From the sequence record PP777464.1: DNA of 64,000 bases. One strand, 5' to 3'. The first letter of the stretch is position 1. Each line of letters opens with the position of its first letter. This document shows, piece after piece, positions 50,289-61,952 of this stretch. The notes beneath the pieces are model-generated. The model saw only the letters and a program-made list of their open reading frames with translations, was not told the DNA's origin and ran no database searches. The position numbers and the translations under genes are program-made. Source of the stretch: Escherichia phage fEgEco12.

Positions 50289-50352
50289 GTACTTGCAAAG
50301 TAAATCGAATAAAGTATAATACATTACATCAAGGGGAGAAATGATTCTCCCC
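50289..50352 (+). promoter_or_regulatory. promoter + leader stem-loop module
   Basis: TTGCAA 50293-50298, TATAAT 50315-50320, hairpin GGGGAGAAATGATTCTCCCC. Confidence 0.65.
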
Positions 50353-50369
50353 ACTACAAGGAAACTAAT

Positions 50370-50513: not shown

Positions 50514-50525
50514 AAATATTATCAC

Positions 50526-50561
50526 AGTACTATTGACATAGTTTGATAGTACTGGCATAAT
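50526..50561 (+). promoter_or_regulatory. palindrome-embedded promoter (AGTACTAT-N12-ATAGTACT spanning -35 TTGACA; -10 CATAAT)
   Basis: TTGACA 50533-50538, CATAAT 50556-50561. Confidence 0.6.
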
Positions 50562-50602
50562 AGATTTTATCAAGACAACATATTAATTTAAGGAATACAA
50601 AA

Positions 50603-50926
50603 ATGGCTAAAACTATCATTAACACCGTTTCCCTGGCTGCAATCCGTGCAATCAATGTTGACGGTAAACGTTGGACTGATTCATATGGCAATACTTATCA
50701 TTCTTGTCATGTAAGCGTCGAACTGGATAACGGTTTGAATGATCTGGCGGTTGAATCATTTACTTATGGCTATGAAGATGCATATCAACAAACGGCGTTA
50801 GATCTATTAAAGGAATCAGTAGACGGGCTTAATACTGATGAAACCTCCCTTACTCGTTTGTGCAATGATCTTAATATCCCGTTGCATTGTACTGTACAGA
50901 ATGTTAAACGCAAAAAAGATCTTTAA
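50603..50926 (+). CDS. hypothetical protein (107 aa), RWTDSYGNTYHSC family
   Basis: paralog of 57434-57757. Confidence 0.55.
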   Translation: MAKTIINTVSLAAIRAINVDGKRWTDSYGNTYHSCHVSVELDNGLNDLAVESFTYGYEDAYQQTALDLLKESVDGLNTDETSLTRLCNDLNIPLHCTVQNVKRKKDL

Positions 50927-50940
50927 TTAGCTTTACTTTA

Positions 50941-50972
50941 TGCAGATACTTTGATATAGTGTCTGCATAGGG
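50941..50972 (+). other. intergenic hairpin TATGCAGATACT..AGTGTCTGCATA
   Basis: 11-bp inverted repeat with one mismatch. Confidence 0.45.
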
Positions 50973-51006
50973 GAAAGAAATTAAATTAACTTAAGAGGAA
51001 CGTATA

Positions 51007-51276
51007 ATGAAAAATATCAGTACTTTAATCGACGCAGGTACACATGTTCGGCGGTCTATGGTTGCAACCAGTACTACAAAACAAGTAGCGAGCGGTTATC
51101 TTGTATTTGTGCACGATGGTAAACTACTGGAACGTTCAATCAATTTTGATGTTAAAAACAATTGCCGTTTTATTATCTTTAAGCGTGAGCAATATAAAAT
51201 TGATTTACCAGCAAAGCCCATTAGTGGGGCGTACAACGTGCAATCATTGTTTGAACGTCAACCATACACCTATTAA
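51007..51276 (+). CDS. hypothetical protein (89 aa)
   Basis: ATG with GAGGAA RBS. Confidence 0.55.
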   Translation: MKNISTLIDAGTHVRRSMVATSTTKQVASGYLVFVHDGKLLERSINFDVKNNCRFIIFKREQYKIDLPAKPISGAYNVQSLFERQPYTY

Positions 51277-51327
51277 TCAAAACATCGTTAGCGGTCGATT
51301 CAGGCCGCTTATATTGGGGATTATACC

Positions 51328-51600
51328 ATGAACGTTAATCAAGTACTGAATGAAGTTGAAAGCATCATTAAACCAATGAAACGCATTGATGCTATGTTAA
51401 CACCGGAAGAATGCCGCCTATATGAGCGTTATAGCGTCGAACAAGTCCAGGCGATGGCTATGGCTACCCCAGCCGTTAAACCGCCTGAGAATGCGTTACA
51501 GGACGTTACAGGGGATTATATCATTAATCCAGTACTAGGGAAGATGGCTGCAATCACCGAAGATCAACAAGACTACTTAAGCCAGTACTTAAAAGGTTAA
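51328..51600 (+). CDS. hypothetical protein (90 aa)
   Basis: ATG ORF. Confidence 0.5.
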   Translation: MNVNQVLNEVESIIKPMKRIDAMLTPEECRLYERYSVEQVQAMAMATPAVKPPENALQDVTGDYIINPVLGKMAAITEDQQDYLSQYLKG

Positions 51601-51605
51601 TTAAT

Positions 51606-51815
51606 ATGCTTACTGTACAGGATAAGATCGACATCTTAAAGGTTAATATGTATGTGATTGATGCAGTACCTGGTAAAGTATTTGCATACGATGACACCAC
51701 TGTAAGCGATTTCTACTATAGCCAGGACGTGGGGGATCTTTCTGTACAGTCGGTTATTGAAAACGTAGTTAATGTAGCGTATGAGCATTTACTTTCAAAT
51801 AGTACTTGCAATTAG
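51606..51815 (+). CDS. hypothetical protein (69 aa)
   Basis: ATG 5 nt after upstream stop. Confidence 0.45.
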   Translation: MLTVQDKIDILKVNMYVIDAVPGKVFAYDDTTVSDFYYSQDVGDLSVQSVIENVVNVAYEHLLSNSTCN

Positions 51816-51866
51816 TTTTTAAACGCGTATAATGTTTTACATGAAGGGGAGAAATGATTCTCCCCA
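51802..51866 (+). promoter_or_regulatory. promoter + leader stem-loop module
   Basis: TTGCAA 51806-51811, TATAAT 51828-51833, hairpin GGGGAGAAATGATTCTCCCC. Confidence 0.65.
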
Positions 51867-51884
51867 CTAATTAAGGAATATGAA

Positions 51885-52031
51885 ATGAAAGCATCAAAAA
51901 AGAGTAATACTAAGAAAGCACGTTCACCTTTCGCTGGGGTATTCCCTTTACGTTTCGTTGATGAAGTAGTTTCCTACCCGCCGGGCCTTACTCCTGAGAT
52001 GGTAGAAAGTTTGCGTAAATCTAAAAAATAG
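51885..52031 (+). CDS. hypothetical small basic protein (48 aa)
   Basis: ATG after AAGGAA RBS; below track cutoff. Confidence 0.45.
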   Translation: MKASKKSNTKKARSPFAGVFPLRFVDEVVSYPPGLTPEMVESLRKSKK

Positions 52032-52094
52032 TACTTGCAATTAGTTTTTAGTACTGTATAATGTTTTACATGAAGGGGAGAAATGATTCTCCCC
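52031..52094 (+). promoter_or_regulatory. promoter + leader stem-loop module
   Basis: TTGCAA 52035-52040, TATAAT 52057-52062, hairpin GGGGAGAAATGATTCTCCCC. Confidence 0.65.
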
Positions 52095-52112
52095 AATAAC
52101 AGGAGAATCAAA

Positions 52113-52265
52113 ATGAAACAATACAACGCTCGGTTTGATGTTACTATCGGTAACGGCAAAGGTCAATTCTCTTTCAGTACTCGCAAAAGTTATACAGAAA
52201 ACTTCCTGCGTAATTGTGCACTGACCGCCGCACAAATTAAACATTACTTTCAGGCTAAAAAATGA
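52113..52265 (+). CDS. hypothetical small protein (50 aa)
   Basis: ATG after AGGAGAA RBS. Confidence 0.5.
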   Translation: MKQYNARFDVTIGNGKGQFSFSTRKSYTENFLRNCALTAAQIKHYFQAKK

Positions 52266-52351
52266 AATCATTAGCTTATTACAGTTCGGCCCTGGTCGGT
52301 GCATTGATCGCGGCGTTGTTAGTAACCTATCTATTCTTTATGGTGATTTAA
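52262..52351 (+). CDS. tiny hydrophobic peptide (29 aa)
   Basis: ATGA overlap; single predicted TM helix; speculative. Confidence 0.25.
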   Translation: MKSLAYYSSALVGALIAALLVTYLFFMVI

Positions 52352-52495
52352 ATGAATCCAACAGGTTTAAACTATAAAAGTTGTTCGGCGTTTACGAAAG
52401 CAAATAAAGCGAATGCACGTAAAGCGAAAGTACAGGAATACATCAAGCAAGGCATGACGCGAAAGGCGGCGATTCTAAAAGCTAAAAATAAATGA
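52352..52495 (+). CDS. small basic protein (47 aa)
   Basis: TAAATG overlap; speculative. Confidence 0.3.
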   Translation: MNPTGLNYKSCSAFTKANKANARKAKVQEYIKQGMTRKAAILKAKNK

Positions 52496-52501
52496 AAAAA
52501 G

Positions 52502-52533
52502 TGGTTGACTCCGGTCAGCCATTTTGCTATTAT
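52502..52533 (+). terminator. composite terminator-promoter (TGGTTGACTCCGGTCAGCCA; -10 TATTAT)
   Basis: right-arm variant of the left-arm hairpin family. Confidence 0.6.
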
Positions 52534-52622
52534 ATATTCATTGAGAGATAGCTCACTAGCCCACAGGGTGCATAAGTGTATCTATTATATAAGTATTGAG
52601 TACTGAAAACTATTTTTAAAAA
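52534..52622 (+). ncRNA. candidate short transcript carrying TAGCCCACAGGGTGCATAAGTGTATC motif
   Basis: between composite element and next promoter; no ORF. Confidence 0.3.
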
Positions 52623-52687
52623 GTACTTGCAAACTATCTCAATAAGCGTATAATGTTTTACATCGAAAGGGGAAACGGTTTCCCCTG
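52623..52687 (+). promoter_or_regulatory. promoter + leader stem-loop module
   Basis: TTGCAA 52627-52632, TATAAT 52649-52654, hairpin GGGGAAACGGTTTCCCC. Confidence 0.65.
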
Positions 52688-52705
52688 GTAATAAGGAAAC
52701 AAATC

Positions 52706-53047
52706 ATGACTATCTCAATTGCTCAATCTAACTTTGAAAATGAAATCATCGCCCAGGCACTGCGTTTAAATGATGGTCGGGCCGAAATTAATTACGGTTT
52801 CAATTCAGGCGGTTGTGAAAAATATCAGTACTTTGTAACGGCTGATGGCGGTGTCCTGGGTATCAATACAGTTATTGTAAACATACAGAAAATTAATTTC
52901 AATGATCCAGACGATAGCCAGTTTTACATCACTGGCGTAGACGTGAACTATGAGGATGACTCACTAACTGATGATCACACTGGCGAGCGGTTAGAAAGTG
53001 CATACGGTGAAGATGATTATCAGTCCGGTCCAGAAGATTTCGAATAA
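52706..53047 (+). CDS. hypothetical acidic protein (113 aa)
   Basis: ATG after AAGGAAA RBS. Confidence 0.55.
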   Translation: MTISIAQSNFENEIIAQALRLNDGRAEINYGFNSGGCEKYQYFVTADGGVLGINTVIVNIQKINFNDPDDSQFYITGVDVNYEDDSLTDDHTGERLESAYGEDDYQSGPEDFE

Positions 53048-53057
53048 TATAAAAAAA

Positions 53058-53121
53058 TAGTTTGACAATAGATTATAGTACTGTATAATAGTTTACATCA
53101 AGGGGAGAAAAACTTCTCCCC
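53058..53121 (+). promoter_or_regulatory. promoter + leader stem-loop module
   Basis: TTGACA 53062-53067, TATAAT 53084-53089, hairpin GGGGAGAAAAACTTCTCCCC. Confidence 0.65.
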
Positions 53122-53143
53122 ACTAACAGAGAGAAAAAACAAA

Positions 53144-53356
53144 ATGGCTAATATCTGCACTGTACTGAAAAATGCAAAACAAGTTTTATTTTCTGATCAC
53201 GATCATTTAAACAAGGATATTACTGGCGTTCGGAATATCAAAGATGTAAAAAGTGTTATGGGTATCTATTGCAATATGAAACGTGTTGGAACGTTCGGCG
53301 ACAAAGTACTATACCAGGCAGGGGATTACAATTTTACACTGACTATCATTAACTAA
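53144..53356 (+). CDS. hypothetical protein (70 aa)
   Basis: ATG after GAGAGA RBS. Confidence 0.5.
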   Translation: MANICTVLKNAKQVLFSDHDHLNKDITGVRNIKDVKSVMGIYCNMKRVGTFGDKVLYQAGDYNFTLTIIN

Positions 53357-53368
53357 AAATATTATCAC

Positions 53369-53404
53369 AGTACTATTGACATAGTTTGATAGTACTGACA
53401 TAAT
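53369..53404 (+). promoter_or_regulatory. palindrome-embedded promoter (near-duplicate of 50526-50561)
   Basis: TTGACA 53376-53381, CATAAT 53399-53404. Confidence 0.6.
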
Positions 53405-53439
53405 AACTTTTATCAACTACACTACTAAGGAATTAAAAA

Positions 53440-53619
53440 ATGGCTATCATCGCAAAAACTGAAATCGTTGGTCTGGATTCTATCATCATGACGTTTGAAG
53501 ATCAAAAAGGTATGTATGTAGTTTCATATGGTGATTATGTTCGGGAGTATGAAACGGTAGACGAAGCCTTTGAAAGTTATATTCGCCAGGTGAATAAAGC
53601 ATACGACGACTACCGCTAA
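53440..53619 (+). CDS. hypothetical small acidic protein (59 aa)
   Basis: ATG after AAGGAA RBS; below track cutoff. Confidence 0.45.
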   Translation: MAIIAKTEIVGLDSIIMTFEDQKGMYVVSYGDYVREYETVDEAFESYIRQVNKAYDDYR

Positions 53620-53630
53620 AATATATTACC

Positions 53631-53665
53631 AGTACTATTGACATAGATTGATAGTACTGTATAAT
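53631..53665 (+). promoter_or_regulatory. palindrome-embedded promoter variant
   Basis: TTGACA 53638-53643, TATAAT 53660-53665. Confidence 0.6.
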
Positions 53666-53709
53666 AAGTTTTATAAACAGTAGTTAACTTAACCTAAGAG
53701 AGAAATAAA

Positions 53710-53853
53710 ATGATCGCACTGGATTCATTCATCGACGCAGTACTGGCAAAAACTGGCGAGGATCTGACCGCAGAACAATACGCGATGATCGAGCAATGTC
53801 AGCAAAACGGTAAATCGGTGAAAGATACTGTTAAGATTATCCGCAAGATGTAA
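53710..53853 (+). CDS. hypothetical small protein (47 aa)
   Basis: ATG after AGAGAGAAA RBS; paralog of 49834-49986. Confidence 0.45.
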   Translation: MIALDSFIDAVLAKTGEDLTAEQYAMIEQCQQNGKSVKDTVKIIRKM

Positions 53854-53859
53854 TATTAT

Positions 53860-53890
53860 AGCCCACTGGTTAACGCTGGTGGGCTTTAAT
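53860..53890 (+). terminator. hairpin GCCCAC..GTGGGC containing a Chi octamer
   Basis: inverted repeat after stop; weak T-run; GCTGGTGG 53875-53882. Confidence 0.45.
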
Positions 53891-53958
53891 CATTTACCCT
53901 ATACAATGCCAGTACTAAACCGTTTATCTCGTTAGAATGCGTTACAGGACGTTTGACA

Positions 53959-54156
53959 ATGATTAGCATGAAATCAGTACAAAAACAAATAGAAACATTA
54001 TCAAAAATTAAACGTAAACAGTACTCGTTAGAATATACAATCAATGGTAACTATCATCTAATGAAAGAGAATAATTTCATTGTCATTGATGAATCATTGC
54101 AAGTTATTAGTATAGTACTGAAAGCATTAATCAATGACAGAAAAAAATTAAAATAA
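53959..54156 (+). CDS. hypothetical protein (65 aa), uncertain
   Basis: AT-rich ORF without a clear RBS; track start is TTG. Confidence 0.3.
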   Translation: MISMKSVQKQIETLSKIKRKQYSLEYTINGNYHLMKENNFIVIDESLQVISIVLKALINDRKKLK

Positions 54157-54160
54157 TCTA

Positions 54161-54189
54161 TTGACAATATCCTCCAGTACTGGCATAAT
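54161..54189 (+). promoter_or_regulatory. orphan promoter TTGACA-17-CATAAT
   Basis: TTGACA 54161-54166, CATAAT 54184-54189; leader carries AACCCATAGGGTGCAC. Confidence 0.5.
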
Positions 54190-54250
54190 ACTTACATCAA
54201 GACGAGAACGTCACTAACCCATAGGGTGCACAAATGTAACTATATAATAT
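54190..54250 (+). ncRNA. candidate short transcript with ACCCATAGGGTGC motif
   Basis: no ORF downstream. Confidence 0.3.
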
Positions 54251-54251
54251 C

Positions 54252-54324
54252 GATCAATAAATGATCAAAAAAGTACTGGATCAATTTAGCATAAGGCGTA
54301 TAATTCTGATCAATTCTTGATCAA
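54252..54324 (+). promoter_or_regulatory. cluster of five GATCAA repeats around a promoter (TATAAT 54299-54304)
   Basis: GATCAA at 54252, 54263, 54279, 54308, 54319; two pairs spaced 11 bp. Confidence 0.5.
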
Positions 54325-54485
54325 AGGCAATATACGCAGTTGAATTTATATAGACAGTACAAAGGCGTTACTATTCGTGGTAATGCTGGTGGATATGTAG
54401 TATCATATGGTTTGAATAAGATAAACACTAGTAGTATTATTGTAGCATTACAGTACTATAGTATTTTTATAATGAGGTTAAAATA

Positions 54486-54743
54486 ATGGCAGTAGGATAC
54501 GCGAAAGACGGGGCCGAACAAGACGAGATTCATGCAGTGATTCAGGCCGCCGTTAACCACGCTAGAAAGCAAATTAACGCACAAAGAGAATCACTTGTAC
54601 ATTGCCTCGACTGCGGCGATAAAATCCCTGAGAATCGACGCCAGGCCGTTATAGGGTGCATGTATTGTATTACTTGCCAGGAGGATCATGATAGTACTTT
54701 TAAAAGAGATCCGCGTAATTGTTGGCATAGATCTATGAGATAA
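54486..54743 (+). CDS. TraR/DksA-family C4 zinc-finger protein
   Basis: CLDCGDKIPENRR...CMYCITCQ C-x2-C-x17-C-x2-C motif. Confidence 0.7.
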   Translation: MAVGYAKDGAEQDEIHAVIQAAVNHARKQINAQRESLVHCLDCGDKIPENRRQAVIGCMYCITCQEDHDSTFKRDPRNCWHRSMR

Positions 54744-54748
54744 AAAGT

Positions 54749-54776
54749 ATTGACAGTACTGAAAGATAGTGTATAA
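54749..54776 (+). promoter_or_regulatory. promoter TTGACA-16-TATAAT
   Basis: TTGACA 54749-54754, TATAAT 54771-54776. Confidence 0.6.
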
Positions 54777-54806
54777 TGTTTTATATCTTAACTGAGGATA
54801 GTAATC

Positions 54807-55163
54807 ATGGGAATACAACATATCACGCGTACTACTGACAATGGCGAGATCACTGGCTATCAAGTACAGGGCAAAGTAGCACAATTGCAGTACTGGTTTG
54901 TTAAACGTGGAATCATTGCACCGGATCTTGATTATGACCGTGTAGCGTTTATTGATTCTCTTTATGTTGATCCTGATAGTCGGGGCAATGGTGAAGGTAA
55001 CGAATTAATGAATGCCTTTATTGATGCCGCCGATGATTCAGATTGTATCATCTTAGAATGCGATACGGGAGAAGATAACGCCTTTAATCTTAAAGAATGG
55101 TACGAAGGTTTCGGATTCGAGGTATTGATAGATAGTGAATATCCTATCATGATTTTATCATAG
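54807..55163 (+). CDS. GNAT-like N-acetyltransferase (small)
   Basis: VDPDSRGNGEGNELMNAF resembles GNAT motif A; C-terminal Y..GF. Confidence 0.5.
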   Translation: MGIQHITRTTDNGEITGYQVQGKVAQLQYWFVKRGIIAPDLDYDRVAFIDSLYVDPDSRGNGEGNELMNAFIDAADDSDCIILECDTGEDNAFNLKEWYEGFGFEVLIDSEYPIMILS

Positions 55164-55166
55164 TAC

Positions 55167-55223
55167 TTGCATTTAGTTTTCAGTACTGTTATAGTACTTG
55201 CATCAAGGGGAAACATCTTCCCC
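55167..55223 (+). promoter_or_regulatory. promoter + leader stem-loop module
   Basis: TTGCAT, TATAGT, hairpin GGGGAAACATCTTCCCC. Confidence 0.6.
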
Positions 55224-55241
55224 TACTAAGAGGAAATAAAA

Positions 55242-55430
55242 ATGGAAAACTTATCAAGTATTTTAGTACAAGATGATTTCGGTAATCCTGGAAGTGCTAT
55301 CATTGTTCGGGGCAATAAAGCAACGTTTGTTATTGCTGGTGGACCCGTACAGCGTAGCATTAAAAATAATGCTGTTACCATTAATAATGTACGCTATCGC
55401 TTAGATAAAGAATTAATTCATAAACTGTAA
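55242..55430 (+). CDS. hypothetical protein (62 aa)
   Basis: ATG after AGAGGAAA RBS. Confidence 0.5.
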   Translation: MENLSSILVQDDFGNPGSAIIVRGNKATFVIAGGPVQRSIKNNAVTINNVRYRLDKELIHKL

Positions 55431-55457
55431 TATTAATTTAATAGAGGATAACAATAA

Positions 55458-55781
55458 ATGTACATTCATACTACTGTCACAAAGGAAGTCCGTTGCCAGT
55501 TCGAAAGTATTCCGGGCGTATGTTTCATCACTGGTACGTTTTCCCCTGGTGATCGTGATAATCCAGTACTGTTACAGTTACGCCATCCATTATGGGATAA
55601 AGCATTTGATCTGCCGTTGAATGAATTCGCAACCACTGCTGATAAGTACATTAAAAATATTCGCGAGAATGATTGCCTATTCATTAATGCTTTTAGTGAT
55701 GCCGCGTTAAGTGAGATCCATGCTGTATTGGTTGCAATCATGGAATCAATGGAGAAAACTATATTCAAACAAGGTGAATAA
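55458..55781 (+). CDS. hypothetical protein (107 aa)
   Basis: ATG after GAGGA RBS. Confidence 0.55.
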   Translation: MYIHTTVTKEVRCQFESIPGVCFITGTFSPGDRDNPVLLQLRHPLWDKAFDLPLNEFATTADKYIKNIRENDCLFINAFSDAALSEIHAVLVAIMESMEKTIFKQGE

Positions 55782-55786
55782 AAACT

Positions 55787-55846
55787 ATTGACAATGCAAT
55801 CCAGTACTGTATAATAGTTTACATGAAGGGGAGAAATGATTCTCCC
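55787..55846 (+). promoter_or_regulatory. promoter + leader stem-loop module
   Basis: TTGACA 55787-55792, TATAAT 55808-55813, hairpin GGGGAGAAATGATTCTCCCC. Confidence 0.65.
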
Positions 55847-55864
55847 CACTAAGAGGAAAGAAAA

Positions 55865-56077
55865 ATGCAAGGTCAACTAATCGTTCGTAAATGGTCTGAT
55901 ACTAACGAAAAACCGTGGGATGTACAATACATCGCCCCAAATGGTGAATCCAGATATCAACCAGGTGTAACGCATAGTACTGAGCAATTCGCCGCCGCTC
56001 ATCGCGAACGTCTGTTACAATCAATGCAGCAAGGTTCCGGTGAAAAATTCATTCAGGATCATTGGCTGAAAGATTAA
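55865..56077 (+). CDS. hypothetical protein (70 aa)
   Basis: ATG after AGAGGAAAG RBS. Confidence 0.55.
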   Translation: MQGQLIVRKWSDTNEKPWDVQYIAPNGESRYQPGVTHSTEQFAAAHRERLLQSMQQGSGEKFIQDHWLKD

Positions 56078-56085
56078 AAAAGTAC

Positions 56086-56143
56086 TTGCACAGTACTGAA
56101 TAAAGTGTATAATGTTTTATATCGGAAGGGGAATAGTTCCCCT
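56086..56143 (+). promoter_or_regulatory. promoter + leader stem-loop module
   Basis: TTGCAC 56086-56091, TATAAT 56108-56113, hairpin AGGGGAATAGTTCCCCT. Confidence 0.65.
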
Positions 56144-56164
56144 CCTAACAAAGAGGAAAGTATA

Positions 56165-56338
56165 ATGGTCCAGGTAGAATTAACAGTACTGAAAGATCTG
56201 TTTTATCGGATTGGTACTACTGGCGAATATCCGAAGGGTGATAATGCAAAACTTTACGTATCACTCGACTTATGGCAACGCGAACAATTAGCAACGGCCT
56301 GGCGTAAAGGCAAAGCAGATCGAGAGGTGAAAGCATGA
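56165..56338 (+). CDS. hypothetical small protein (57 aa)
   Basis: ATG after AGAGGAAAG RBS. Confidence 0.5.
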   Translation: MVQVELTVLKDLFYRIGTTGEYPKGDNAKLYVSLDLWQREQLATAWRKGKADREVKA

Positions 56339-56484
56339 AAGAATTCTTATTTGAAGTAGTGTTTCAAGGTGTCGGTAATAACCAACTGATTCGATCAAGT
56401 GGTTATAATGTTAACCAGGCATGGAATAACATTAAACAAATGTACCCGAACGCTATCACATATCGCAACCCGAAAGAAGTTTAA
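56335..56484 (+). CDS. hypothetical small protein (49 aa)
   Basis: ATGA overlap; below track cutoff. Confidence 0.4.
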   Translation: MKEFLFEVVFQGVGNNQLIRSSGYNVNQAWNNIKQMYPNAITYRNPKEV

Positions 56485-56498
56485 AAATATTTGAAAAA

Positions 56499-56532
56499 GG
56501 GATTGACTCCGGTCAGTCCCTTTGCTATTATA
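56499..56532 (+). terminator. composite terminator-promoter (GGGATTGACTCCGGTCAGTCCC; -10 TATTAT)
   Basis: hairpin + TTTGC; TTGACT inside stem. Confidence 0.65.
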
Positions 56533-56622
56533 TACGCATAGAAACAAATTAGCCCACAGGGTGCATAAATGTATCTATTGTTTGCTGGTGGCTAGTACTG
56601 AAAACTATTTTTAAAAAAGTAC
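56533..56622 (+). ncRNA. candidate short transcript with TAGCCCACAGGGTGCATAAATGTATC motif and Chi octamer
   Basis: no ORF; GCTGGTGG 56584-56591. Confidence 0.3.
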
Positions 56623-56650
56623 TTGCATTGTACTTAGAATCAAGTATAAT
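56623..56650 (+). promoter_or_regulatory. promoter TTGCAT-16-TATAAT
   Basis: TTGCAT 56623-56628, TATAAT 56645-56650. Confidence 0.6.
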
Positions 56651-56651
56651 G

Positions 56652-56738
56652 TTTTACATCAGGACGGGGAACGAAATAAGTAACCCCGTTAAGTAGTCCA
56701 GGAGTAAGACATACGAAAAACTCCCCTGATAAAATAGT
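56652..56738 (+). ncRNA. candidate small RNA / structured leader (copy 2 of duplicated element)
   Basis: near-identical to 46398-46486; no ORF. Confidence 0.35.
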
Positions 56739-56766
56739 TTGACAATAGAAAGTAAACGAGTATAAT
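56739..56766 (+). promoter_or_regulatory. promoter TTGACA-16-TATAAT
   Basis: TTGACA 56739-56744, TATAAT 56761-56766. Confidence 0.6.
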
Positions 56767-56799
56767 ACTTACATCAACCACTGATAAGGAAACATTAAA

Positions 56800-57075
56800 A
56801 TGCGGACTTTACTTACAGCTAACGAAATCGAGCAAGTACTGACTACTAATCTGGAACAATGGAAACGTGAAGCAGATATCCAGGCGGTTCAATGCCTTAA
56901 CGATAAGTTAACGCCAGATGACTTAAGCACGATTGTTGATCCACAATTTTATGAAGATATTCACGACACGTCTTTAAGCGTCGAGGATGTACTTGATAAG
57001 CACTACATTGATACTGATTTACATGTTTACGGTCGTAAAAACTTTATCACTATTCACGACATTTACAATACTTAA
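56800..57075 (+). CDS. hypothetical protein (91 aa)
   Basis: ATG after AAGGAAA RBS. Confidence 0.55.
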   Translation: MRTLLTANEIEQVLTTNLEQWKREADIQAVQCLNDKLTPDDLSTIVDPQFYEDIHDTSLSVEDVLDKHYIDTDLHVYGRKNFITIHDIYNT

Positions 57076-57078
57076 GTA

Positions 57079-57140
57079 TTGACAAAGTATCTTAGTACTG
57101 TATAATAGTTTACATCAAGTGAGGGGAAACGGTTCCCCTC
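57079..57140 (+). promoter_or_regulatory. promoter + leader stem-loop module
   Basis: TTGACA 57079-57084, TATAAT 57101-57106, hairpin GAGGGGAAACGGTTCCCCTC. Confidence 0.65.
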
Positions 57141-57163
57141 CTAACAAAGAGAGAGAAATAAAA

Positions 57164-57346
57164 ATGGCTAAGTGCACTATCTGTAATAAAGAAATAGTAT
57201 TAGTTCCAAGTGCCCGTGAACGTGCCGCTCGGTTCGGTGGCAAAGCGTCAGACTATACAAAAATGTTTACTGCCCATACAGCTTGCCAGGTAGCAAAACG
57301 TTCACAAGAAAGCGTAGAATTAATGCGTAAACTTTCCAAAAAATAA
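57164..57346 (+). CDS. small protein with CxxC (60 aa)
   Basis: ATG after AGAGAGAGAAA RBS. Confidence 0.5.
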   Translation: MAKCTICNKEIVLVPSARERAARFGGKASDYTKMFTAHTACQVAKRSQESVELMRKLSKK

Positions 57347-57349
57347 GTA

Positions 57350-57411
57350 TTGACAAAGTATCTTAGTACTGTATAATAGTTTACATCAAGCGAGGGGAAT
57401 AGTTCCCCTCC
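57350..57411 (+). promoter_or_regulatory. promoter + leader stem-loop module (duplicate of 57079-57140)
   Basis: TTGACA 57350-57355, TATAAT 57372-57377, hairpin GAGGGGAATAGTTCCCCTC. Confidence 0.65.
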
Positions 57412-57433
57412 TAACAAAGAGAGAGAAATAAAA

Positions 57434-57757
57434 ATGGCTATGATCCTTGCCCAGAAAGTAGAATTGAAAATTGTAACCTCCTTTGACATTAACGTTAATC
57501 GGTGGACTGATTCACACGGCAATACTTACCACTCTTGCTACGTGTCTGCGTTAATTGGCGACCGCTGGGAAGACCTGGGACACGAAACCTTTACATACGG
57601 TTACGGTACACAAGGCGAATACACGGGCTTGGAGATCATTAAAGAAACCGTTATAGGTTTCAACCCGAAAGAAAAAGTTATTCATCGCATCGAGGAAGAG
57701 ATCAACAAAGAAATAACAGTTCGCTACCACGATGTAAAACGTAAGAAAGACATGTAA
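57434..57757 (+). CDS. hypothetical protein (107 aa), paralog of 50603-50926
   Basis: shared NRWTDSHGNTYHSC block. Confidence 0.55.
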   Translation: MAMILAQKVELKIVTSFDINVNRWTDSHGNTYHSCYVSALIGDRWEDLGHETFTYGYGTQGEYTGLEIIKETVIGFNPKEKVIHRIEEEINKEITVRYHDVKRKKDM

Positions 57758-57788
57758 TAGAATCCATTTAAAGTACTATTTGACATTG

Positions 57789-57817
57789 CCCAGATAGTAC
57801 TTTATAATAGACTCTAA
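57789..57817 (+). promoter_or_regulatory. promoter TTGACA-17-TATAAT
   Basis: TTGACA 57789-57794, TATAAT 57812-57817. Confidence 0.6.
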
Positions 57818-57852
57818 CTTGTAGTACTAACTCAACTAATAGGATGTATACC

Positions 57853-58248
57853 ATGATTACTAAATTCTACGCTACCCGTGAAGCTGCCCGTATTGTTGCA
57901 CGCGAGGAAGGAGCAGCATTTAAAGACATGGGCAAAGATGCAACGAAAGGACAACGCTGGGCCGTACAGTTCAAAGAAATCTCTGATATTGTGAATTCAC
58001 CTGAGCCAGTACTGACAGCAGCAGAACTAAAACGAGCGGATATGCTGGCGGCAATACTTGACGCACAAGATGAGTTTATCGCTGATTCTGATATCAAAGT
58101 ACAGGTAAACCACACCGCATGGACTCACGCGGATCACCTGGCAAACCTTAAGCGTCCAAGTGAACTGATTCGCAACCAGAAAGAGATCCGACATGATCGT
58201 AAGGGTAATCGTGTAACAGTATACAGTAAACGCCGCCAGGTTATCTAA
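57853..58248 (+). CDS. hypothetical protein (131 aa), paralog of 45535-45801
   Basis: shared KFYATREAARI...RKGNRVTVY blocks. Confidence 0.55.
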   Translation: MITKFYATREAARIVAREEGAAFKDMGKDATKGQRWAVQFKEISDIVNSPEPVLTAAELKRADMLAAILDAQDEFIADSDIKVQVNHTAWTHADHLANLKRPSELIRNQKEIRHDRKGNRVTVYSKRRQVI

Positions 58249-58270
58249 TAACTTGCAGTACTAACAACAC

Positions 58271-58295
58271 GGCGGGATCAGTTCCCGCCTTTTTT
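58271..58295 (+). terminator. intrinsic terminator GGCGGGATCAGTTCCCGCC + T6
   Basis: hairpin + TTTTTT. Confidence 0.7.
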
Positions 58296-58309
58296 ATAGG
58301 ACAAACAAA

Positions 58310-58564
58310 ATGATTAAGGTTCAACTATATAAAGATAACATCTTACGGGTACACTATAAAGCACCTCAGAGAATCATCACAAAGGCCGTACAGCTTGCTA
58401 ATGAGTTTATTAATGGTAACCTATTACCTAGGAAGTTAAGCAACGGGAAACTGCGTGTAATCGACGTGGACACTAACAACAGGATAGTAATCGAGAACAC
58501 AGGAAAGATAAACCTTTATGAGCATCAACAATACAATAAGAAAATAAAACTAATATCACGTTGA
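58310..58564 (+). CDS. hypothetical protein (84 aa)
   Basis: ATG ORF. Confidence 0.5.
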   Translation: MIKVQLYKDNILRVHYKAPQRIITKAVQLANEFINGNLLPRKLSNGKLRVIDVDTNNRIVIENTGKINLYEHQQYNKKIKLISR

Positions 58565-58589
58565 CAGTACTCAATTGTTTTAGTACTAT
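58561..58589 (+). promoter_or_regulatory. promoter TTGACA-17-TACTAT
   Basis: TTGACA 58561-58566; duplicated at 58837. Confidence 0.55.
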
Positions 58590-58617
58590 GTACACATACC
58601 AACACGGGAGAAACAAA

Positions 58618-58836
58618 ATGAAATTATCTAAAATCGAAAAGAAAACTATTGATGAAGCAGTTAAGCACGGTTATACCTTTCGTAATGATTCACATTTTAC
58701 CAATTTTCAACAAGGGTATCGTACTATTAAAAAACTAATTGACAAAGGTTTATTAGTTGAAGTCAATAACGGTAACGGTATCGAGTATCAACCAACACAG
58801 GACGCATTTTATTTTAAGAAATATAATATTATCTAA
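58618..58836 (+). CDS. hypothetical protein (72 aa)
   Basis: ATG after GGGAGAAA RBS; track ORF begins at TTG within the promoter. Confidence 0.5.
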   Translation: MKLSKIEKKTIDEAVKHGYTFRNDSHFTNFQQGYRTIKKLIDKGLLVEVNNGNGIEYQPTQDAFYFKKYNII

Positions 58837-58865
58837 TTGACAGTACTCAAATGTTTTAGTACTAT
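58837..58865 (+). promoter_or_regulatory. promoter TTGACA-17-TACTAT (duplicate of 58561)
   Basis: TTGACA 58837-58842. Confidence 0.55.
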
Positions 58866-58893
58866 ATGTACATACCAACACGGGGGAAACAAA

Positions 58894-59136
58894 ATGATTA
58901 CTTTAGAAAAACGTATCAAAGAAACTACATCGCTGGTGGAACTGTTAACAGTACTCAAATGTAAAACAACACCATTCAGCACGCCGGACTTTATTAATAT
59001 GGTTGATGTTAATGGTCGCTATCGTATCACGGTCGAACAAGGAGCGGCGAAAGTATTCAGTACTAAAAACACGAAGGAAGTGATCCACGCCGTTAATGTT
59101 AAAAAAGTAGTTGCCATTGATAGTAAAGTACTGTAA
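58894..59136 (+). CDS. hypothetical protein (80 aa)
   Basis: ATG after GGGGGAAA RBS. Confidence 0.5.
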   Translation: MITLEKRIKETTSLVELLTVLKCKTTPFSTPDFINMVDVNGRYRITVEQGAAKVFSTKNTKEVIHAVNVKKVVAIDSKVL

Positions 59137-59167
59137 TATAGTTTCATTAACTCAAGGAGAACATGCA

Positions 59168-59752
59168 ATGCGTAATTATACTAAATTCATCCGTACACTG
59201 TCAGAAATGGAAACCAACAAAGAGATCCTTTCAGCTTGTCGGTTAGCTGGCCTGGAGATCATCGGTGCTGGTTCTTCCCGTATAGTTTTCGCTTTAAATG
59301 ATCGGTTAGTGATTAAGGTCGCGAATTGTGATGCGGGTGTAGAACAAAATGAAACTGAATGTAAGGTATGGAATTTTTTAGACTATGACCGCCCTCAATT
59401 GAAACAGTACTTTGCAAAGGTGCATATGCATTTATGCGATCCTGATAATATGTTTATCGTTATGGATCGGTTGAGTACTGCAAGCAAAGGCAGTGTGAAG
59501 CACGTAAACGCGTGCAATGAATTAAAGTACAATATTAAACGTAATGCAATCGAACGCCAGCACCGCTTTGCTGATGCACTACAACACGTTGATGATACAT
59601 TATCAACACTAACGATAAGAGATATCAGAAAACAGAATATCGGCCAGGATCGTAATGGACTTATTAAAGTACTTGATTACGGTTTAACCAGCAATATCTG
59701 GAATCAGTACTATAAAAAGCGTGATGTGGCAGCAAGTAAGGTAACACGATAA
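59168..59752 (+). CDS. protein-kinase-like protein (ePK-fold motifs)
   Basis: GAGSSRIV glycine loop, VIKV lysine, IRDIRKQN catalytic-loop-like, DYG (DFG-like). Confidence 0.55.
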   Translation: MRNYTKFIRTLSEMETNKEILSACRLAGLEIIGAGSSRIVFALNDRLVIKVANCDAGVEQNETECKVWNFLDYDRPQLKQYFAKVHMHLCDPDNMFIVMDRLSTASKGSVKHVNACNELKYNIKRNAIERQHRFADALQHVDDTLSTLTIRDIRKQNIGQDRNGLIKVLDYGLTSNIWNQYYKKRDVAASKVTR

Positions 59753-59767
59753 AAAAAGATTAAAAAA

Positions 59768-59800
59768 GGGATTGACTCCGGTCAGTCCCTTTGCTATTAT
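59768..59800 (+). terminator. composite terminator-promoter (GGGATTGACTCCGGTCAGTCCC; -10 TATTAT)
   Basis: same element as 56499 and 62520. Confidence 0.65.
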
Positions 59801-59893
59801 ATATCCATTGAGAGATAACTCACTGACCCATAGGGTGCGGAAGTGTATCTATTATATAAGTATTCAGTACTGAAAACTATTTTTAAAAAAGTA
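59801..59893 (+). ncRNA. candidate short transcript with ACCCATAGGGTGCGGAAGTGTATC motif
   Basis: no ORF before next promoter. Confidence 0.3.
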
Positions 59894-59954
59894 CTTGCAT
59901 TGTACTTAGAATCAAGTATAATGTTTTATATCGAGAGGGGGAATGGTTCTCCCT
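59894..59954 (+). promoter_or_regulatory. promoter + leader stem-loop module
   Basis: TTGCAT 59894-59899, TATAAT 59917-59922, hairpin GGGGGAATGGTTCTCCC. Confidence 0.65.
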
Positions 59955-59973
59955 GGCAATAAGGAATAAAATC

Positions 59974-60195
59974 ATGACTACAATGACTTGCATTTACGCT
60001 TCTAATCTTCTGAATGATGCGGCCTTTAATGTTGATTCAGAATATCAATGTTATCGGGATGAAAATAAAAAAGTTTTTGTAGTTGATAATAATGGTTTCC
60101 ATATTGAATTACAATCCGGCTTCACTGGTGTTGATGGTAAATCAGTATGGGGCGTACAGGATGATAAAGGCACATATCATTTTAAACGTAATTAA
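59974..60195 (+). CDS. hypothetical protein (73 aa)
   Basis: ATG after AAGGAATAAA RBS. Confidence 0.55.
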   Translation: MTTMTCIYASNLLNDAAFNVDSEYQCYRDENKKVFVVDNNGFHIELQSGFTGVDGKSVWGVQDDKGTYHFKRN

Positions 60196-60198
60196 GTA

Positions 60199-60257
60199 TT
60201 GACAAAGTATATCAGTACTGTATAATAGTTTACATCAAGGGGAGAATAGTTCTCCCC
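60199..60257 (+). promoter_or_regulatory. promoter + leader stem-loop module
   Basis: TTGACA 60199-60204, TATAAT 60221-60226, hairpin GGGGAGAATAGTTCTCCCC. Confidence 0.65.
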
Positions 60258-60278
60258 GATACTAAAAGGAATAAAATC

Positions 60279-60683
60279 ATGACTACTACTAATCAAGCTC
60301 GGTCCATCGCCAACGATAAAAATCATGCTGCAATGGTCGCTGGTTACATTGAAGCTATGCAATTCAGTACTGTACACAATGAGAACGGCGATTACCTGGA
60401 AGATTATGAGTTATCTGATGAAGCACGTCAAGCGGCGGTGATTGCATGTTCTCGCTTCATTGAGAAACACGGTAATGATCTGGAAGTAGTTCGCGGTATG
60501 TTTATTGATTACGGTTATGAGCAAGCTGGTCATGATCTGTTCCTTACCCGCGAAGGTCACGGAACTGGTTTTTGGGATCGTGGTTTAGGTCACTATGGCG
60601 ATGTATTCACGAAGTACTGCGAAGAAATCAACGTTTGCGATCCCTATGTAGGCGATGATAATCTAATCTATATGGGCGAATAA
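60279..60683 (+). CDS. hypothetical protein (134 aa)
   Basis: ATG after AAAGGAA RBS. Confidence 0.55.
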   Translation: MTTTNQARSIANDKNHAAMVAGYIEAMQFSTVHNENGDYLEDYELSDEARQAAVIACSRFIEKHGNDLEVVRGMFIDYGYEQAGHDLFLTREGHGTGFWDRGLGHYGDVFTKYCEEINVCDPYVGDDNLIYMGE

Positions 60684-60689
60684 AAGTAT

Positions 60690-60748
60690 TTGACAAAGTA
60701 TATCAGTACTGTATAATAGTTTACATCAAGGGGAGAACTATTCTCCCC
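60690..60748 (+). promoter_or_regulatory. promoter + leader stem-loop module
   Basis: TTGACA 60690-60695, TATAAT 60712-60717, hairpin GGGGAGAACTATTCTCCCC. Confidence 0.65.
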
Positions 60749-60772
60749 ACACCAATAAAAGGAAACAAAATT

Positions 60773-61045
60773 ATGTCCAGCTACTCCGCTACTATGATCA
60801 TTAAAGATATGAACGGTAATCCTACTTCTGCTGGTGGATCATTTGGAAATATTAACTTAGATGGGCGGTTATCCATGCAATCAGCCATCGATACAGCGAA
60901 AGAAGTTTTTAAGAATGAATGTACTGTTAGTAAGCTGGATTATATGGGATTCGCTATCGAGAAAACTACTCGTTTTGTGAACTACAAAAATCCACTGATG
61001 ATTGATACTAACCTGAAAGCTAACGAAGTGGGGTACTTATTATGA
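60773..61045 (+). CDS. hypothetical protein (90 aa)
   Basis: ATG after AAAGGAAA RBS. Confidence 0.55.
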   Translation: MSSYSATMIIKDMNGNPTSAGGSFGNINLDGRLSMQSAIDTAKEVFKNECTVSKLDYMGFAIEKTTRFVNYKNPLMIDTNLKANEVGYLL

Positions 61046-61233
61046 CAGTAGAAGAAGTTAAAAAAGTACTGGCAGTACTACGATATCATAATCATTGCAA
61101 GGTGAAGAATGATCCTGATTATCTTGATTCATCCCTGGAGGAAGACACCTTGAACGCTATAAGCCATATGCAGACATTAGCAAAGCGTATGACTGAAAAG
61201 AACATGCCGGACTATATCGGAAATAAAATTTAA
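61042..61233 (+). CDS. hypothetical protein (63 aa)
   Basis: ATGA overlap. Confidence 0.5.
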   Translation: MTVEEVKKVLAVLRYHNHCKVKNDPDYLDSSLEEDTLNAISHMQTLAKRMTEKNMPDYIGNKI

Positions 61234-61239
61234 AAAGTA

Positions 61240-61302
61240 CTTGCATTGTAGTTAGATTAACGTATAATGTTTTATATCGAGAGGGGGAAATGGTTTCCCC
61301 TC
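61240..61302 (+). promoter_or_regulatory. promoter + leader stem-loop module
   Basis: TTGCAT 61240-61245, TATAAT 61263-61268, hairpin GAGGGGGAAATGGTTTCCCCTC. Confidence 0.65.
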
Positions 61303-61320
61303 AAGTCCAGGAGATACACC

Positions 61321-61584
61321 ATGAACACTATCGAAATCACTATCAATGCACACGTATACGACAACGTAGTACTGCAAACTACTATGACCGCCAATGATAC
61401 CAGTACTTTGCGGAATACTGTTATTAGTGCCGTATGTGCCGCTATCGGTGATGTCGCCCTGGAAAATGCAAAACACGTAAACGATGGTTTCACTATGTGC
61501 AAACGTGATAACGCAAAACATATCATCGTGGAAGGTTACGGCGGTGTAGAATTTAATGTTTATATGAAAAAAGTACTTGCATAA
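61321..61584 (+). CDS. hypothetical protein (87 aa)
   Basis: ATG after CAGGAGA RBS. Confidence 0.55.
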   Translation: MNTIEITINAHVYDNVVLQTTMTANDTSTLRNTVISAVCAAIGDVALENAKHVNDGFTMCKRDNAKHIIVEGYGGVEFNVYMKKVLA

Positions 61585-61632
61585 TAACTAAAACAAAGTA
61601 TAATGTTTTGCATAGGGGGAGATATCCTCCCC
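61577..61632 (+). promoter_or_regulatory. promoter + leader stem-loop module
   Basis: TTGCAT 61577-61582, TATAAT 61599-61604, hairpin GGGGGAGATATCCTCCCCC. Confidence 0.65.
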
Positions 61633-61651
61633 CACTAAAAGGAGTAATAAA

Positions 61652-61876
61652 ATGGCTAACTTTGATGAACTGATGCGGGAAGTAGCTAACCTGGCAGAAG
61701 AGAAGAAATCATTCGATTCTATCTATAACACCGCTCACCGTGATTCAGTACTGGCATGTAACCAGGATCAAAAAGATGAACTAATCGCCACCTATCATGA
61801 AGCATGGAAGTACTACCGACAATGGGAGAAAGAAGAAAGTGAGTCTACCATTGACGGCCTCAATAATCTAATCTAA
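61652..61876 (+). CDS. hypothetical protein (74 aa)
   Basis: ATG after AAGGAG RBS. Confidence 0.55.
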   Translation: MANFDELMREVANLAEEKKSFDSIYNTAHRDSVLACNQDQKDELIATYHEAWKYYRQWEKEESESTIDGLNNLI

Positions 61877-61888
61877 AAGTTTTATTTC

Positions 61889-61924
61889 AGTACTATTGAC
61901 ATAGCTTGATAGTACTGATGTAAT
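61889..61924 (+). promoter_or_regulatory. palindrome-embedded promoter (AGTACTATTGACATAGCTTGATAGTACT)
   Basis: TTGACA 61896-61901; weak -10. Confidence 0.5.
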
Positions 61925-61952
61925 AACTTTACTAACTACAAGGGGAAACATA

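Follow-up and report, generated by a model that had tools for sequence, protein, structure and literature searches.

AGTACT, a highly iterated palindrome of RaK2-like jumbo phages, recurs at fixed positions in their early promoters

Escherichia phage fEgEco12 carries, within a 64,000-nucleotide stretch of its genome (PP777464.1; the whole stretch is called the window below), four promoters in which an inverted repeat brackets the -35 hexamer. What reads this repeat? The original prediction described its geometry as typical of an operator for a dimeric repressor that overlaps the contacts of RNA polymerase, and suggested that the four downstream genes may be co-regulated. Our analysis points to a smaller unit, the hexamer AGTACT. 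The shared layout AGTACTAT TGACATAG(T/A/C)TTG ATAGTACT was read directly from the sequence at 50526, 53369, 53631 and 61889, and at each of these sites TTGACA lies, exactly as predicted, between inverted 8-mers 12 bp apart. The arms are in fact 9 bp long (CAGTACTAT ... ATAGTACTG). The core of each arm is AGTACT, a six-base palindrome complete in itself. An exact search of the window for AGTACTAT-N12-ATAGTACT returned five perfect copies, the four above and one at 45463. When up to three mismatches were allowed, eight matches were found; the mean in 100 dinucleotide-preserving shuffles was 1.02, and none of the shuffles reached eight. The original prediction had overlooked the repeats at 45463 and 57772 (Table 1), and the 290 copies of AGTACT in the window.

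A consensus promoter scan identified TTGACA-17-CATAAT at 50533 and 53376, each with 11 of 12 σ70 matches and an upstream TG, and TTGACA-16-TATAAT at 53638, with 12 of 12 matches. The fourth promoter, at 61896, was read directly as TTGACA-17-TGTAAT. At all four sites the -35 and -10 hexamers are located 16–17 bp apart, within the 16–18 bp of σ70-type promoters. By sequence, the analysis supports the prediction that these are promoters, of a strong σ70 type. ATG open reading frames (ORFs) with a ribosome-binding site start 30–45 bp downstream, at 50603, 53440, 53710 and 61953. These ORFs are mutually unrelated and have no Pfam domain. The promoters form one 67-nt direct-repeat family in repeat finding (D8, 67–94% identity). 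Folded as RNA, the repeat reaches -12 to -15 kcal/mol (z -3 to -5). A U tract after the hairpin is absent at all four sites, and the hairpin is therefore probably not an intrinsic terminator.

The region of the window is 91–97% identical to the Asteriusvirus jumbo coliphages 121Q, PBECO4, G17, JNE01 and vB_Ec-M-J (~350 kb). In the vB_Ec-M-J record, direct terminal repeats are annotated over the first 21,525 bp, and position 1 of the record aligns to window position 43008. Terminal repeats of ~21 kb have been experimentally confirmed in fEgEco12 and predicted in Sharanji. On these grounds, the window from 43008 to its end at 64000 is a ~21-kb direct terminal repeat. At least 35 repeated σ70-type promoter cassettes are found in these 21 kb (repeat families D1–D8). 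They include 17 copies of AAAAAGTAC[TTGCAA]-N16-TATAATGTTTTACATC and 11–13 copies of TTGACA-N10-AGTACTG-TATAAT. The four promoters belong to this large family of predicted, near-consensus σ70-type early promoter cassettes.

AGTACT occupies a few preferred positions in the cassettes. Counted from the first base of exact TATAAT hexamers on the + strand, two upstream start positions stand out: 27 bases away (19 cases, in which the palindrome shares the first T of TTGCAA) and 7 bases away (15 cases, as AGTACT-G-TATAAT). In a third arrangement, TTGAC[AGTACT], it lies across the 3' end of the -35 element (54750, 58837 and 62218). We scored 32 promoters of the terminal repeat: five carry both sites, nine only the downstream site, five only the upstream site and three the overlapping form. 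The palindrome is located within -41 to -13 in 22 of the 32. The remaining ten carry none (13 lack it at the two scored positions, less the three overlapping forms). These counts indicate that the four promoters are the two-site members of a larger promoter set. Their downstream genes may be co-regulated, as originally proposed, but ~20 other hexamer-bearing promoters would be likewise. The distances between pairs of AGTACT copies in five phages peak at 20–24 bp (41 pairs, ~17 expected). Single-hexamer promoters form no hairpin. The promoters at 1–19.6 kb of the window are composites of a terminator hairpin and a promoter (GGGTTGACTTCGGTCAACCC, T run, TATAAT) and contain no AGTACT.

Copies of the palindrome extend far beyond the promoters. 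The window contains 290, compared with 21.6 expected (13.4-fold). They are found in every part of it, and AGTACT and its overlapping fragment GTACTG are the two most enriched hexamers. Longer versions are enriched as well: ATAGTACT occurs 51 times (4.3 expected) and CAGTACTG 73 times (0.7 expected). Flanking bases are only moderately biased, toward cAGTACTg. According to heuristic, ATG-only gene calls, 183 sites are located within genes (3.4 per kb, in all three reading frames) and 107 between genes (10.5 per kb). After synonymous-codon shuffling, 53 ± 6 genic sites are found, compared with the 183 observed. The density is ~3 per kb over window positions 1–38 kb and 4.5 per kb over the whole window (~1 site per 220 bp), from which roughly 1,000–1,600 sites per genome are extrapolated. 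A 50-kb sample of E. coli K-12 contains three sites (0.06 per kb), and is thus ~75 times sparser than the phage window. Regular spacing of the sites was not found in the window (coefficient of variation 0.8–1.0).

The same excess, 10–20-fold, is present in relatives, which were compared over sampled parts of their genomes. AGTACT occurs 183 times in PHA46 (Salmonella; 14.4 expected, 12.7-fold), 135 times in Kaldavass (Erwinia; 7.8 expected, 17-fold), 104 times in CBB (Pectobacterium; 10 expected, 10.4-fold), 64 times in RaK2 (Klebsiella; 6.6 expected, 9.8-fold) and 69 times in fHe-Yen9-03 (Yersinia; 3.4 expected, 20-fold). GAP32, Serratia BF and the 121Q loci show an excess of 10–21-fold, and the range becomes 10–23-fold when a 366-kb metagenomic phage contig is included. 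Summed over five phages, 776 copies were counted, and 56.7 are expected under a dinucleotide model. The excess extends to phages that share little or no nucleotide similarity with the window. It is absent in the terminal repeat of the more distant Pseudomonas phage PA5oct (2 copies, 5 expected). It is also absent in the unrelated coliphage muut (2 copies, 6.8 expected), where both sites are located in a patch shared with the window. The muut result led us to reject a general coliphage or host-driven feature. We also scanned IMG/VR for AGTACT-N0-3-TTGACA-N8-12-AGTACT. Several copies per contig were found only in RaK2-like jumbo phages (eight in CBB, four in 121Q, three in GAP32, and two each in RaK2 and the 366-kb contig). 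The ~30 single matches, about as many as a rough estimate predicts by chance, come without an AGTACT excess.

Comparison of the promoters indicated which part of the repeat is conserved. We aligned 25 promoters from five phage genera. Both hexamers and TTGACA are invariant across Asteriusvirus, RaK2, CBB, GAP32 and the 366-kb metagenomic phage contig, TATAAT is nearly so, and the inner spacer is variable. RaK2 carries the identical AGTACTAT-N12-ATAGTACT. The version in CBB and GAP32 is AAGTACT-TTGACA-N8-AGAGTACT-T-TATAAT, and in PHA46 and Kaldavass the hexamers are 20–23 bp apart, with other flanks. The two bases that extend the hexamer to 8 bp are kept in Asteriusvirus and RaK2 only, not in CBB, GAP32, PHA46 or Kaldavass. 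Each copy of AGTACT holds its distance to the nearest polymerase element rather than to its partner copy. The spacing between the hexamers (20–24 bp, about two helical turns) varies because each of them abuts its own polymerase element, one copy the upstream edge of the -35 hexamer and the other the -10 hexamer. The variable flanks and spacing, together with the fixed distance to polymerase elements, indicate that the conserved unit is the hexamer.

This bears on whether AGTACTAT and ATAGTACT are two half-sites of one operator, at which a single dimeric repressor would control four (to six) genes. The perfect 8–9-bp inverted repeat at five sites is consistent with such an operator, as is the fact that Asteriusvirus and RaK2 have the 8-bp arms and the 12-bp gap in common but differ in the inner spacer. 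However, the arms are located 20 bp apart center to center, about twice the span of a simple helix-turn-helix (HTH) dimer. The core of each arm is a self-contained palindrome that is found singly at either promoter position in 34 promoters and 290 times in the window, and with 183 copies inside genes it does not behave like a half-site that acts only as part of a pair. The two-base extension is missing in the four phages named above, and half-site spacing is not fixed in relatives but ranges over 20–24 bp. In addition, Pfam analysis revealed no candidate repressor gene among the 46 genes of the terminal repeat. We consider a single operator of this kind highly improbable. A part of the original prediction that stands is the overlap with polymerase contacts: the palindromes are located where a protein bound to them would collide with RNA polymerase, and they are under selection. 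The idea that they are half-sites of a single dimer is not supported.

Selection is evident from site conservation. In the orthologous region of G17 (84.6% identity, 13.2 kb, mostly coding), 31 of 38 AGTACT sites (82%) have remained intact; the corresponding figures are 45% for composition-matched hexamers and 44% for hexamers overall. In the 121Q terminal repeat (90.8% identity), 59 of 69 sites are intact (86%), compared with 64% for all hexamers. The intact sites include 24 of 28 in coding and 35 of 41 in intergenic DNA. One-mismatch neighbors of AGTACT are not depleted: the observed/expected ratio is 1.33 for the deamination product AGTATT/AATACT and 1.8–2.5 for outer-base variants. The conserved sites and the undepleted neighbors together show that selection for the sites, rather than conversion of neighbors, maintains the excess. 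An origin in repair of the very-short-patch (VSP) type was rejected on the same two grounds. These comparisons establish, at the level of sequence, that the enterobacterial RaK2-like jumbo phages carry AGTACT as a highly iterated palindrome under purifying selection.

Highly iterated palindromes (HIPs) are known from cyanobacteria. AGTACT is similar to HIP1 (GCGATCGC), which is also a short perfect palindrome, over-represented within and between genes and kept at orthologous positions. Cyanobacterial HIPs are 15–300-fold over-represented and lineage-wide, and have no assigned function; their conservation reflects selection, not biased repair (PMC5861425, PMC4390886). Like them, AGTACT is at least 10-fold over-represented in both coding and non-coding DNA (13.4-fold, counted in the window), and its conservation exceeds that of control oligomers (82% compared with 45%, and 86% compared with 64%). 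Unlike the 8-bp HIP1, it is viral, 6 bp long, AT-rich and located at fixed core-promoter positions; no gene-level role has been found for HIP1. HIPs also have cognate methyltransferases, whereas none is known for AGTACT.

AGTACT could be the target of an orphan phage DNA methyltransferase or of another base modification, a role that has been proposed for the cyanobacterial HIPs. The strength of early promoters would then follow the methylation state of the DNA, incoming and modified or newly replicated, and the genome-wide copies would mark self. A six-base palindrome is a typical type II methyltransferase site, which supports this explanation. The ~75-fold higher density in phage than in host DNA and the three methyltransferases annotated in Sharanji are also in its favor. 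In cyanobacteria, each HIP co-occurs with a methyltransferase of matching specificity (PMC4390886). RaK2 DNA is methylated, and the phage encodes two putative DNA methyltransferases (PMC3622015). However, the sole methylation reported in RaK2 is at CpG (PMC3622015), which AGTACT does not contain. The ratio of 1.33 for AGTATT/AATACT gives no trace of repair-driven conversion, and no methyltransferase gene is located within the window. Methylation alone would also leave the selection for extra sites unexplained. The DNA of fEgEco12 is cut normally by ten enzymes, ScaI not among them. Overall, we regard a methylation target as unlikely.

The promoter cassettes also resemble the promoter-early stem-loops (PeSLs) of T4-type phages, in which a near-consensus σ70 promoter and a stem-loop flank ORFans (PMC2839356, PMC4122927). 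Shared features include dispersed near-perfect σ70 promoters, AT-rich upstream DNA, an inverted repeat, small ORFans and a hyperplastic early region. However, the PeSL stem-loop is a G/C-rich terminator beside the promoter, whereas here the AGTACT arms bracket the -35 element and no U tract is present. Classic PeSL-like composites of terminator and promoter do occur elsewhere in the window, without AGTACT (for example at 4450 and 52498). We observed such composite elements at 4450, 8040, 8820, 10400, 11085, 15709 and 16290, and at 52498, 56500, 59770 and 62520, with TTGAC inside the terminator stem. This type of element is kept as far as Yersinia, Erwinia and Aeromonas phages.

In line with this resemblance, the repeat could be the stem-loop of a mobile promoter cassette of the PeSL type. 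As an RNA hairpin it would attenuate read-through coming from the gene upstream, and as a homology patch it would serve recombination that shuffles small early genes. The likeness of the four copies would then result from copying and gene conversion, not from a shared operator. The 67-nt family is one among the at least 35 cassettes in 21 kb, has the promoter features described above and precedes unrelated ORFan genes. The same cassette precedes non-orthologous genes in RaK2, and the window and the unrelated muut have in common a 0.5-kb patch that includes an AGTACT promoter cassette. The stability of the repeat as RNA (-12 to -15 kcal/mol) fits as well, and the copy number and near-identity of the four promoters would be accounted for. 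The missing U tract behind the hairpin argues against this explanation, as does the lack of any hairpin in the single-hexamer promoters, and the 183 selected genic sites are left unexplained. A stem-loop origin of this kind is distinctly unlikely as the whole explanation. It is compatible with the mechanism proposed below and not exclusive of it. The patch shared with muut, a Justusliebigvirus, covers 57050–57440 of the window and 10001–10516 of muut at ~90% identity and includes an AGTACT-type promoter. Further early genes are common to Phapecoctavirus-like phages. These shared segments suggest a recent horizontal exchange of early-gene cassettes.

A further explanation is that RNA polymerase itself reads AGTACT as an intrinsic element, either as the host enzyme modified by early phage proteins (DksA/TraR-like) or together with a phage σ70-like factor. 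The positions of the palindrome are fixed relative to the -35 and -10 elements, and in three of the four promoters the TG of an extended -10 comes from AGTACTG. A DksA/TraR zinc-finger protein is encoded in the terminal repeat. On the other hand, one palindrome is found at three promoter positions, which misfits the asymmetric contacts of σ regions 2, 3 and 4. Promoters are at consensus without it; ten of the 32 scored carry none, and neither do the promoters at 1–19.6 kb. The genic sites are not explained. The clade does encode a σ70-like factor (PMC5259590), which is in favor of this explanation. Even so, we find it improbable. We also observed that in CBB, positions 329400–330630, 1.2 kb without an annotated gene, contain σ70-like promoters upstream of an HTH regulator and the σ70-like factor.

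Our preferred explanation, which we put forward tentatively and at slightly less than even confidence, is that one dimer of a clade-specific factor binds each AGTACT, excludes RNA polymerase at early promoters and has an additional global role. The recognition unit would be each hexamer and not the 28-bp repeat, and the reader would be a two-fold-symmetric dimer. Occupancy at about -38 and/or -16 would sterically exclude host RNA polymerase, so that presence of the factor switches off early promoters that are otherwise constitutive. The four promoters would be a doubly guarded version. AGTACT can take three alternative positions between about -41 and -13, which is easier to reconcile with occlusion than with activation, a process that needs a fixed geometry; that the promoters are already at consensus also favors occlusion. 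The same factor may occupy the remaining sites (an extrapolated ~1,000–1,600 per genome) and mark phage DNA. The many sites outside promoters suggest an abundant factor with a second, global role, possibly in marking, organizing or protecting phage DNA. It is also possible, if doubtful, that AGTACT is a viral "self" signature, through which a dedicated factor times early transcription and distinguishes, organizes or protects phage DNA. Candidates for such a factor in RaK2-like jumbo phages are a DNA-binding dimer and a methylation reader/writer pair.

Several observations weigh against occlusion by a dedicated factor. The 20–24-bp range of spacing speaks against strict cooperativity between the two sites. 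Genic copies are spread evenly along genes with no position bias, follow a Poisson distribution among genes and have roughly exponential spacing; this spread of coding-region sites is uninformative about transcription. AGTACT doubles as a terminator stem sequence, which suggests that a general copy-number pressure could fill any tolerant promoter position. The literature searched contained no expression-timing, transcriptome or binding data for the clade. Finally, the search for the binding protein adds negative results. Pfam analysis of the 46 terminal-repeat proteins revealed no HTH, ribbon-helix-helix or similar DNA-binding domain. CBB_511, annotated as an HTH regulator, was rejected as the binder, as its homologues are found only in CBB and GAP32. 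The g57844/g45535 family had looked promising. It is clade-wide, is located downstream of the two extra inverted-repeat promoters and adjoins a ParE-like gene. However, it has no Pfam match, the best match of a 96-sequence profile against the PDB was an S4-domain protein with E = 0.15, and the AlphaFold model (pLDDT 79) has no fold match.

Other results of this search concern the same proteins. The Pfam matches in the terminal repeat are a DksA/TraR zinc finger, a GNAT acetyltransferase, a ParE-like domain, DUF7247, DUF7249 and a weak kinase match. Ten of the proteins were also searched against PHROGs; they matched only families without an assigned function, and no DNA-binding domain was found. 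By local tblastn on the sampled loci, the g57844 family was found in all other sampled phages of the clade but not in Serratia BF or the 366-kb contig. It is always followed by the ParE-like gene and is restricted to RaK2-like enterobacterial phages. Its own core promoter has no AGTACT in CBB and GAP32. A role of the family as a Phd/YefM-like binder is thus not supported, given this promoter and the lack of a profile or fold match. Separately, we observed that 57853–58564 is a clade-conserved pair, a ~130-amino-acid orphan family followed by a ParE-like toxin-domain protein. The orphan family has invariant T-R..AR and D.G.....G.RW motifs and a basic C-terminal hairpin. Judged by its predicted proteins, the pair resembles a toxin-antitoxin module located in the terminal repeat. 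Sites for the nucleoid-occlusion protein SlmA (GTGAGTACTCAC), which have AGTACT as their core, were excluded. Their GTG/CAC flanks do not match those of AGTACT here, and no site with one mismatch or fewer was found; G is at -1 in only 9% of AGTACT sites, and GAGTACTC in none of the 290.

Two kinds of known regulatory sites are comparable to AGTACT. Mycobacteriophage L5 stoperators and SPO1 TF1 sites are bound by a phage protein at many places in the phage genome, including early promoters, with repression of transcription. The stoperators are asymmetric 13-mers with ~30 copies in temperate phages, and TF1 prefers hydroxymethyluracil DNA to a defined palindrome. Neither is known to reach the density of AGTACT (~1 per 220 bp of window). 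The YefM-YoeB operator likewise has two hexameric palindromes with a GTAC core in a promoter, covering polymerase contacts. YefM dimers, one on each hexamer, bind paired TGTACA over the -10 box and repress by occlusion (PMC1802561), a precedent for the mechanism proposed here. However, the spacing is 12 bp in YefM-YoeB and 20–24 bp here, the outer bases of the hexamers differ, and the YefM-YoeB operator is a private autoregulatory site, whereas AGTACT is a genome-wide motif. Hexamers 12 bp apart with an antitoxin gene downstream, as in YefM/Phd-type operators, were not found here, and no Phd/YefM-like protein was detected.

The published accounts consulted on CBB, RaK2, Sharanji and fEgEco12 do not mention AGTACT. 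Only the CBB account covers promoters, and the AGTACT-TTGACA-AGTACT architecture is not reported there; its terminator table contains AGTACTGGTGAAATATCCAGTACT, without comment. A literature search combining AGTACT, phage and promoter returned nothing on these phages, and a search for CAGTACTG returned primer sequences only. As a genome-wide DNA signal, AGTACT has apparently not been described so far. Its nearest counterparts are cyanobacterial HIPs in genome-wide behavior, PeSLs in cassette behavior, and paired-hexamer operators like the one of yefM-yoeB in promoter geometry. The promoter observation is ordinary in kind; the unusual part is a selected, clade-wide and hyper-abundant palindrome in a virus.

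Table 1. Coordinates of the promoters, inverted repeats and surrounding features in the window
Feature	Coordinates	Strand	Description
Direct terminal repeat / early region	43008..64000	+	Small genes, all on the + strand, nearly each with its own promoter
Promoter 1	50526..50561	+	AGTACT 50526-50531 and 50548-50553; -35 TTGACA 50533-50538; -10 CATAAT 50556-50561 after TG; D8 family copy at 50507-50573
Promoter 1 target ORF	50603-50926		
Promoter 2	53369..53404	+	AGTACT 53369-53374 and 53391-53396; -35 53376-53381; -10 CATAAT 53399-53404
Promoter 2 target ORF	53440-53619		
Promoter 3	53631..53665	+	AGTACT 53631-53636 and 53653-53658; -35 53638-53643; -10 TATAAT 53660-53665 (16-bp spacer)
Promoter 3 target ORF	53710-53853		
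Promoter 4	61889..61924	+	AGTACT 61889-61894 and 61911-61916; -35 61896-61901; -10 TGTAAT 61919-61924
Promoter 4 target ORF	61953-62210		
Fifth exact AGTACTAT-N12-ATAGTACT	45463..45497	+	No internal -35; TATAAT one base past second hexamer
ORF behind 45463 repeat	45535-45801		Paralogue of 57853-58248
Sixth inverted repeat, 14-bp inner spacer	57772..57808	+	AGTACTAT-TTGACATTGCCCAG-ATAGTACT-T-TATAAT
ORF behind 57772 repeat	57844/57853-58248		
AGTACT palindrome, 290 copies	1..64000	.	Preferred form cAGTACTg; coding and intergenic DNA throughout
15 RCC1-repeat paralogues	19665..38017	-	Intergenic terminators gCCAGTAC-loop-GTACTGGc and T run, built of AGTACT copies

Additional features were observed in the window. 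The RCC1 (regulator-of-chromosome-condensation) paralogues are arranged in tandem, are 245–402 amino acids long and are annotated as such in related phages; each has a promoter-like region. A 1.4-kb non-coding stretch (42701–44142) spans the physical genome end (~43008) and contains several copies of AGTACT. Tandem repeats are located at 43816–43922, including a 32-bp unit repeated 3.3 times and three copies of CTGGATGG. This stretch is a candidate packaging or terminus region. The E. coli Chi sequence GCTGGTGG is present in 12 + strand and 8 - strand copies, with ~0.2 expected on each strand by a base-composition estimate. Its + strand copies are at 2526, 13058, 43597, 49688, 53875, 54385, 55335, 56584, 58932, 60830, 62409 and 62632, ten of the 12 being in the terminal repeat. 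The Chi copies may shield the linear genome ends from RecBCD.

The early transcripts have recurrent leaders. A ~30-nt conserved leader, TAGCCCACAGGGTGCATAAGTGTATC, follows GGGATTGACTCCGGTCAGTCCC promoters at 52540–52575, 56545–56575, 59810–59844 and 62560–62596, and is also present at 46210 and 54215. It does not match any Rfam family and may represent a small RNA or a processing signal. A hairpin in the 5' untranslated region, GGGGAGAA-loop-TTCTCCCC, is located directly after TATAATgTTTTACATCAA in 19 copies within 43008–64000 (for example 50332–50352, 53101–53121 and 55827–55847). The four promoters do not have this hairpin, and the common leader there is ACTTTTATCAAC. Genes for the DksA/TraR-type zinc-finger protein and the GNAT acetyltransferase are located side by side among the early genes (54486–55163). 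It is plausible that these proteins modify host RNA polymerase or other host proteins. Rfam returned no match over the whole window, and a tRNA scan of it found none.

These results have implications for the biology of the clade and for its use. If AGTACT is indeed a "self" signature, viruses would have their first highly iterated palindrome system, and the long-unsolved HIP phenomenon an experimentally tractable model. Cyanobacterial palindromes have gone without an assigned function for decades, and a lytic ~350-kb phage with a promoter-positioned motif is a far simpler system. The ~75-fold gap in site density is a possible way to tell phage from host DNA, and AGTACT density may serve as a quick marker for assigning metagenomic fragments to the clade. 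The early promoters are compact, near-consensus and potentially switchable parts. The palindrome also provides a handle on the regulation of terminal-repeat early genes in RaK2-like and 121Q-like jumbo phages, which are increasingly proposed for therapy.

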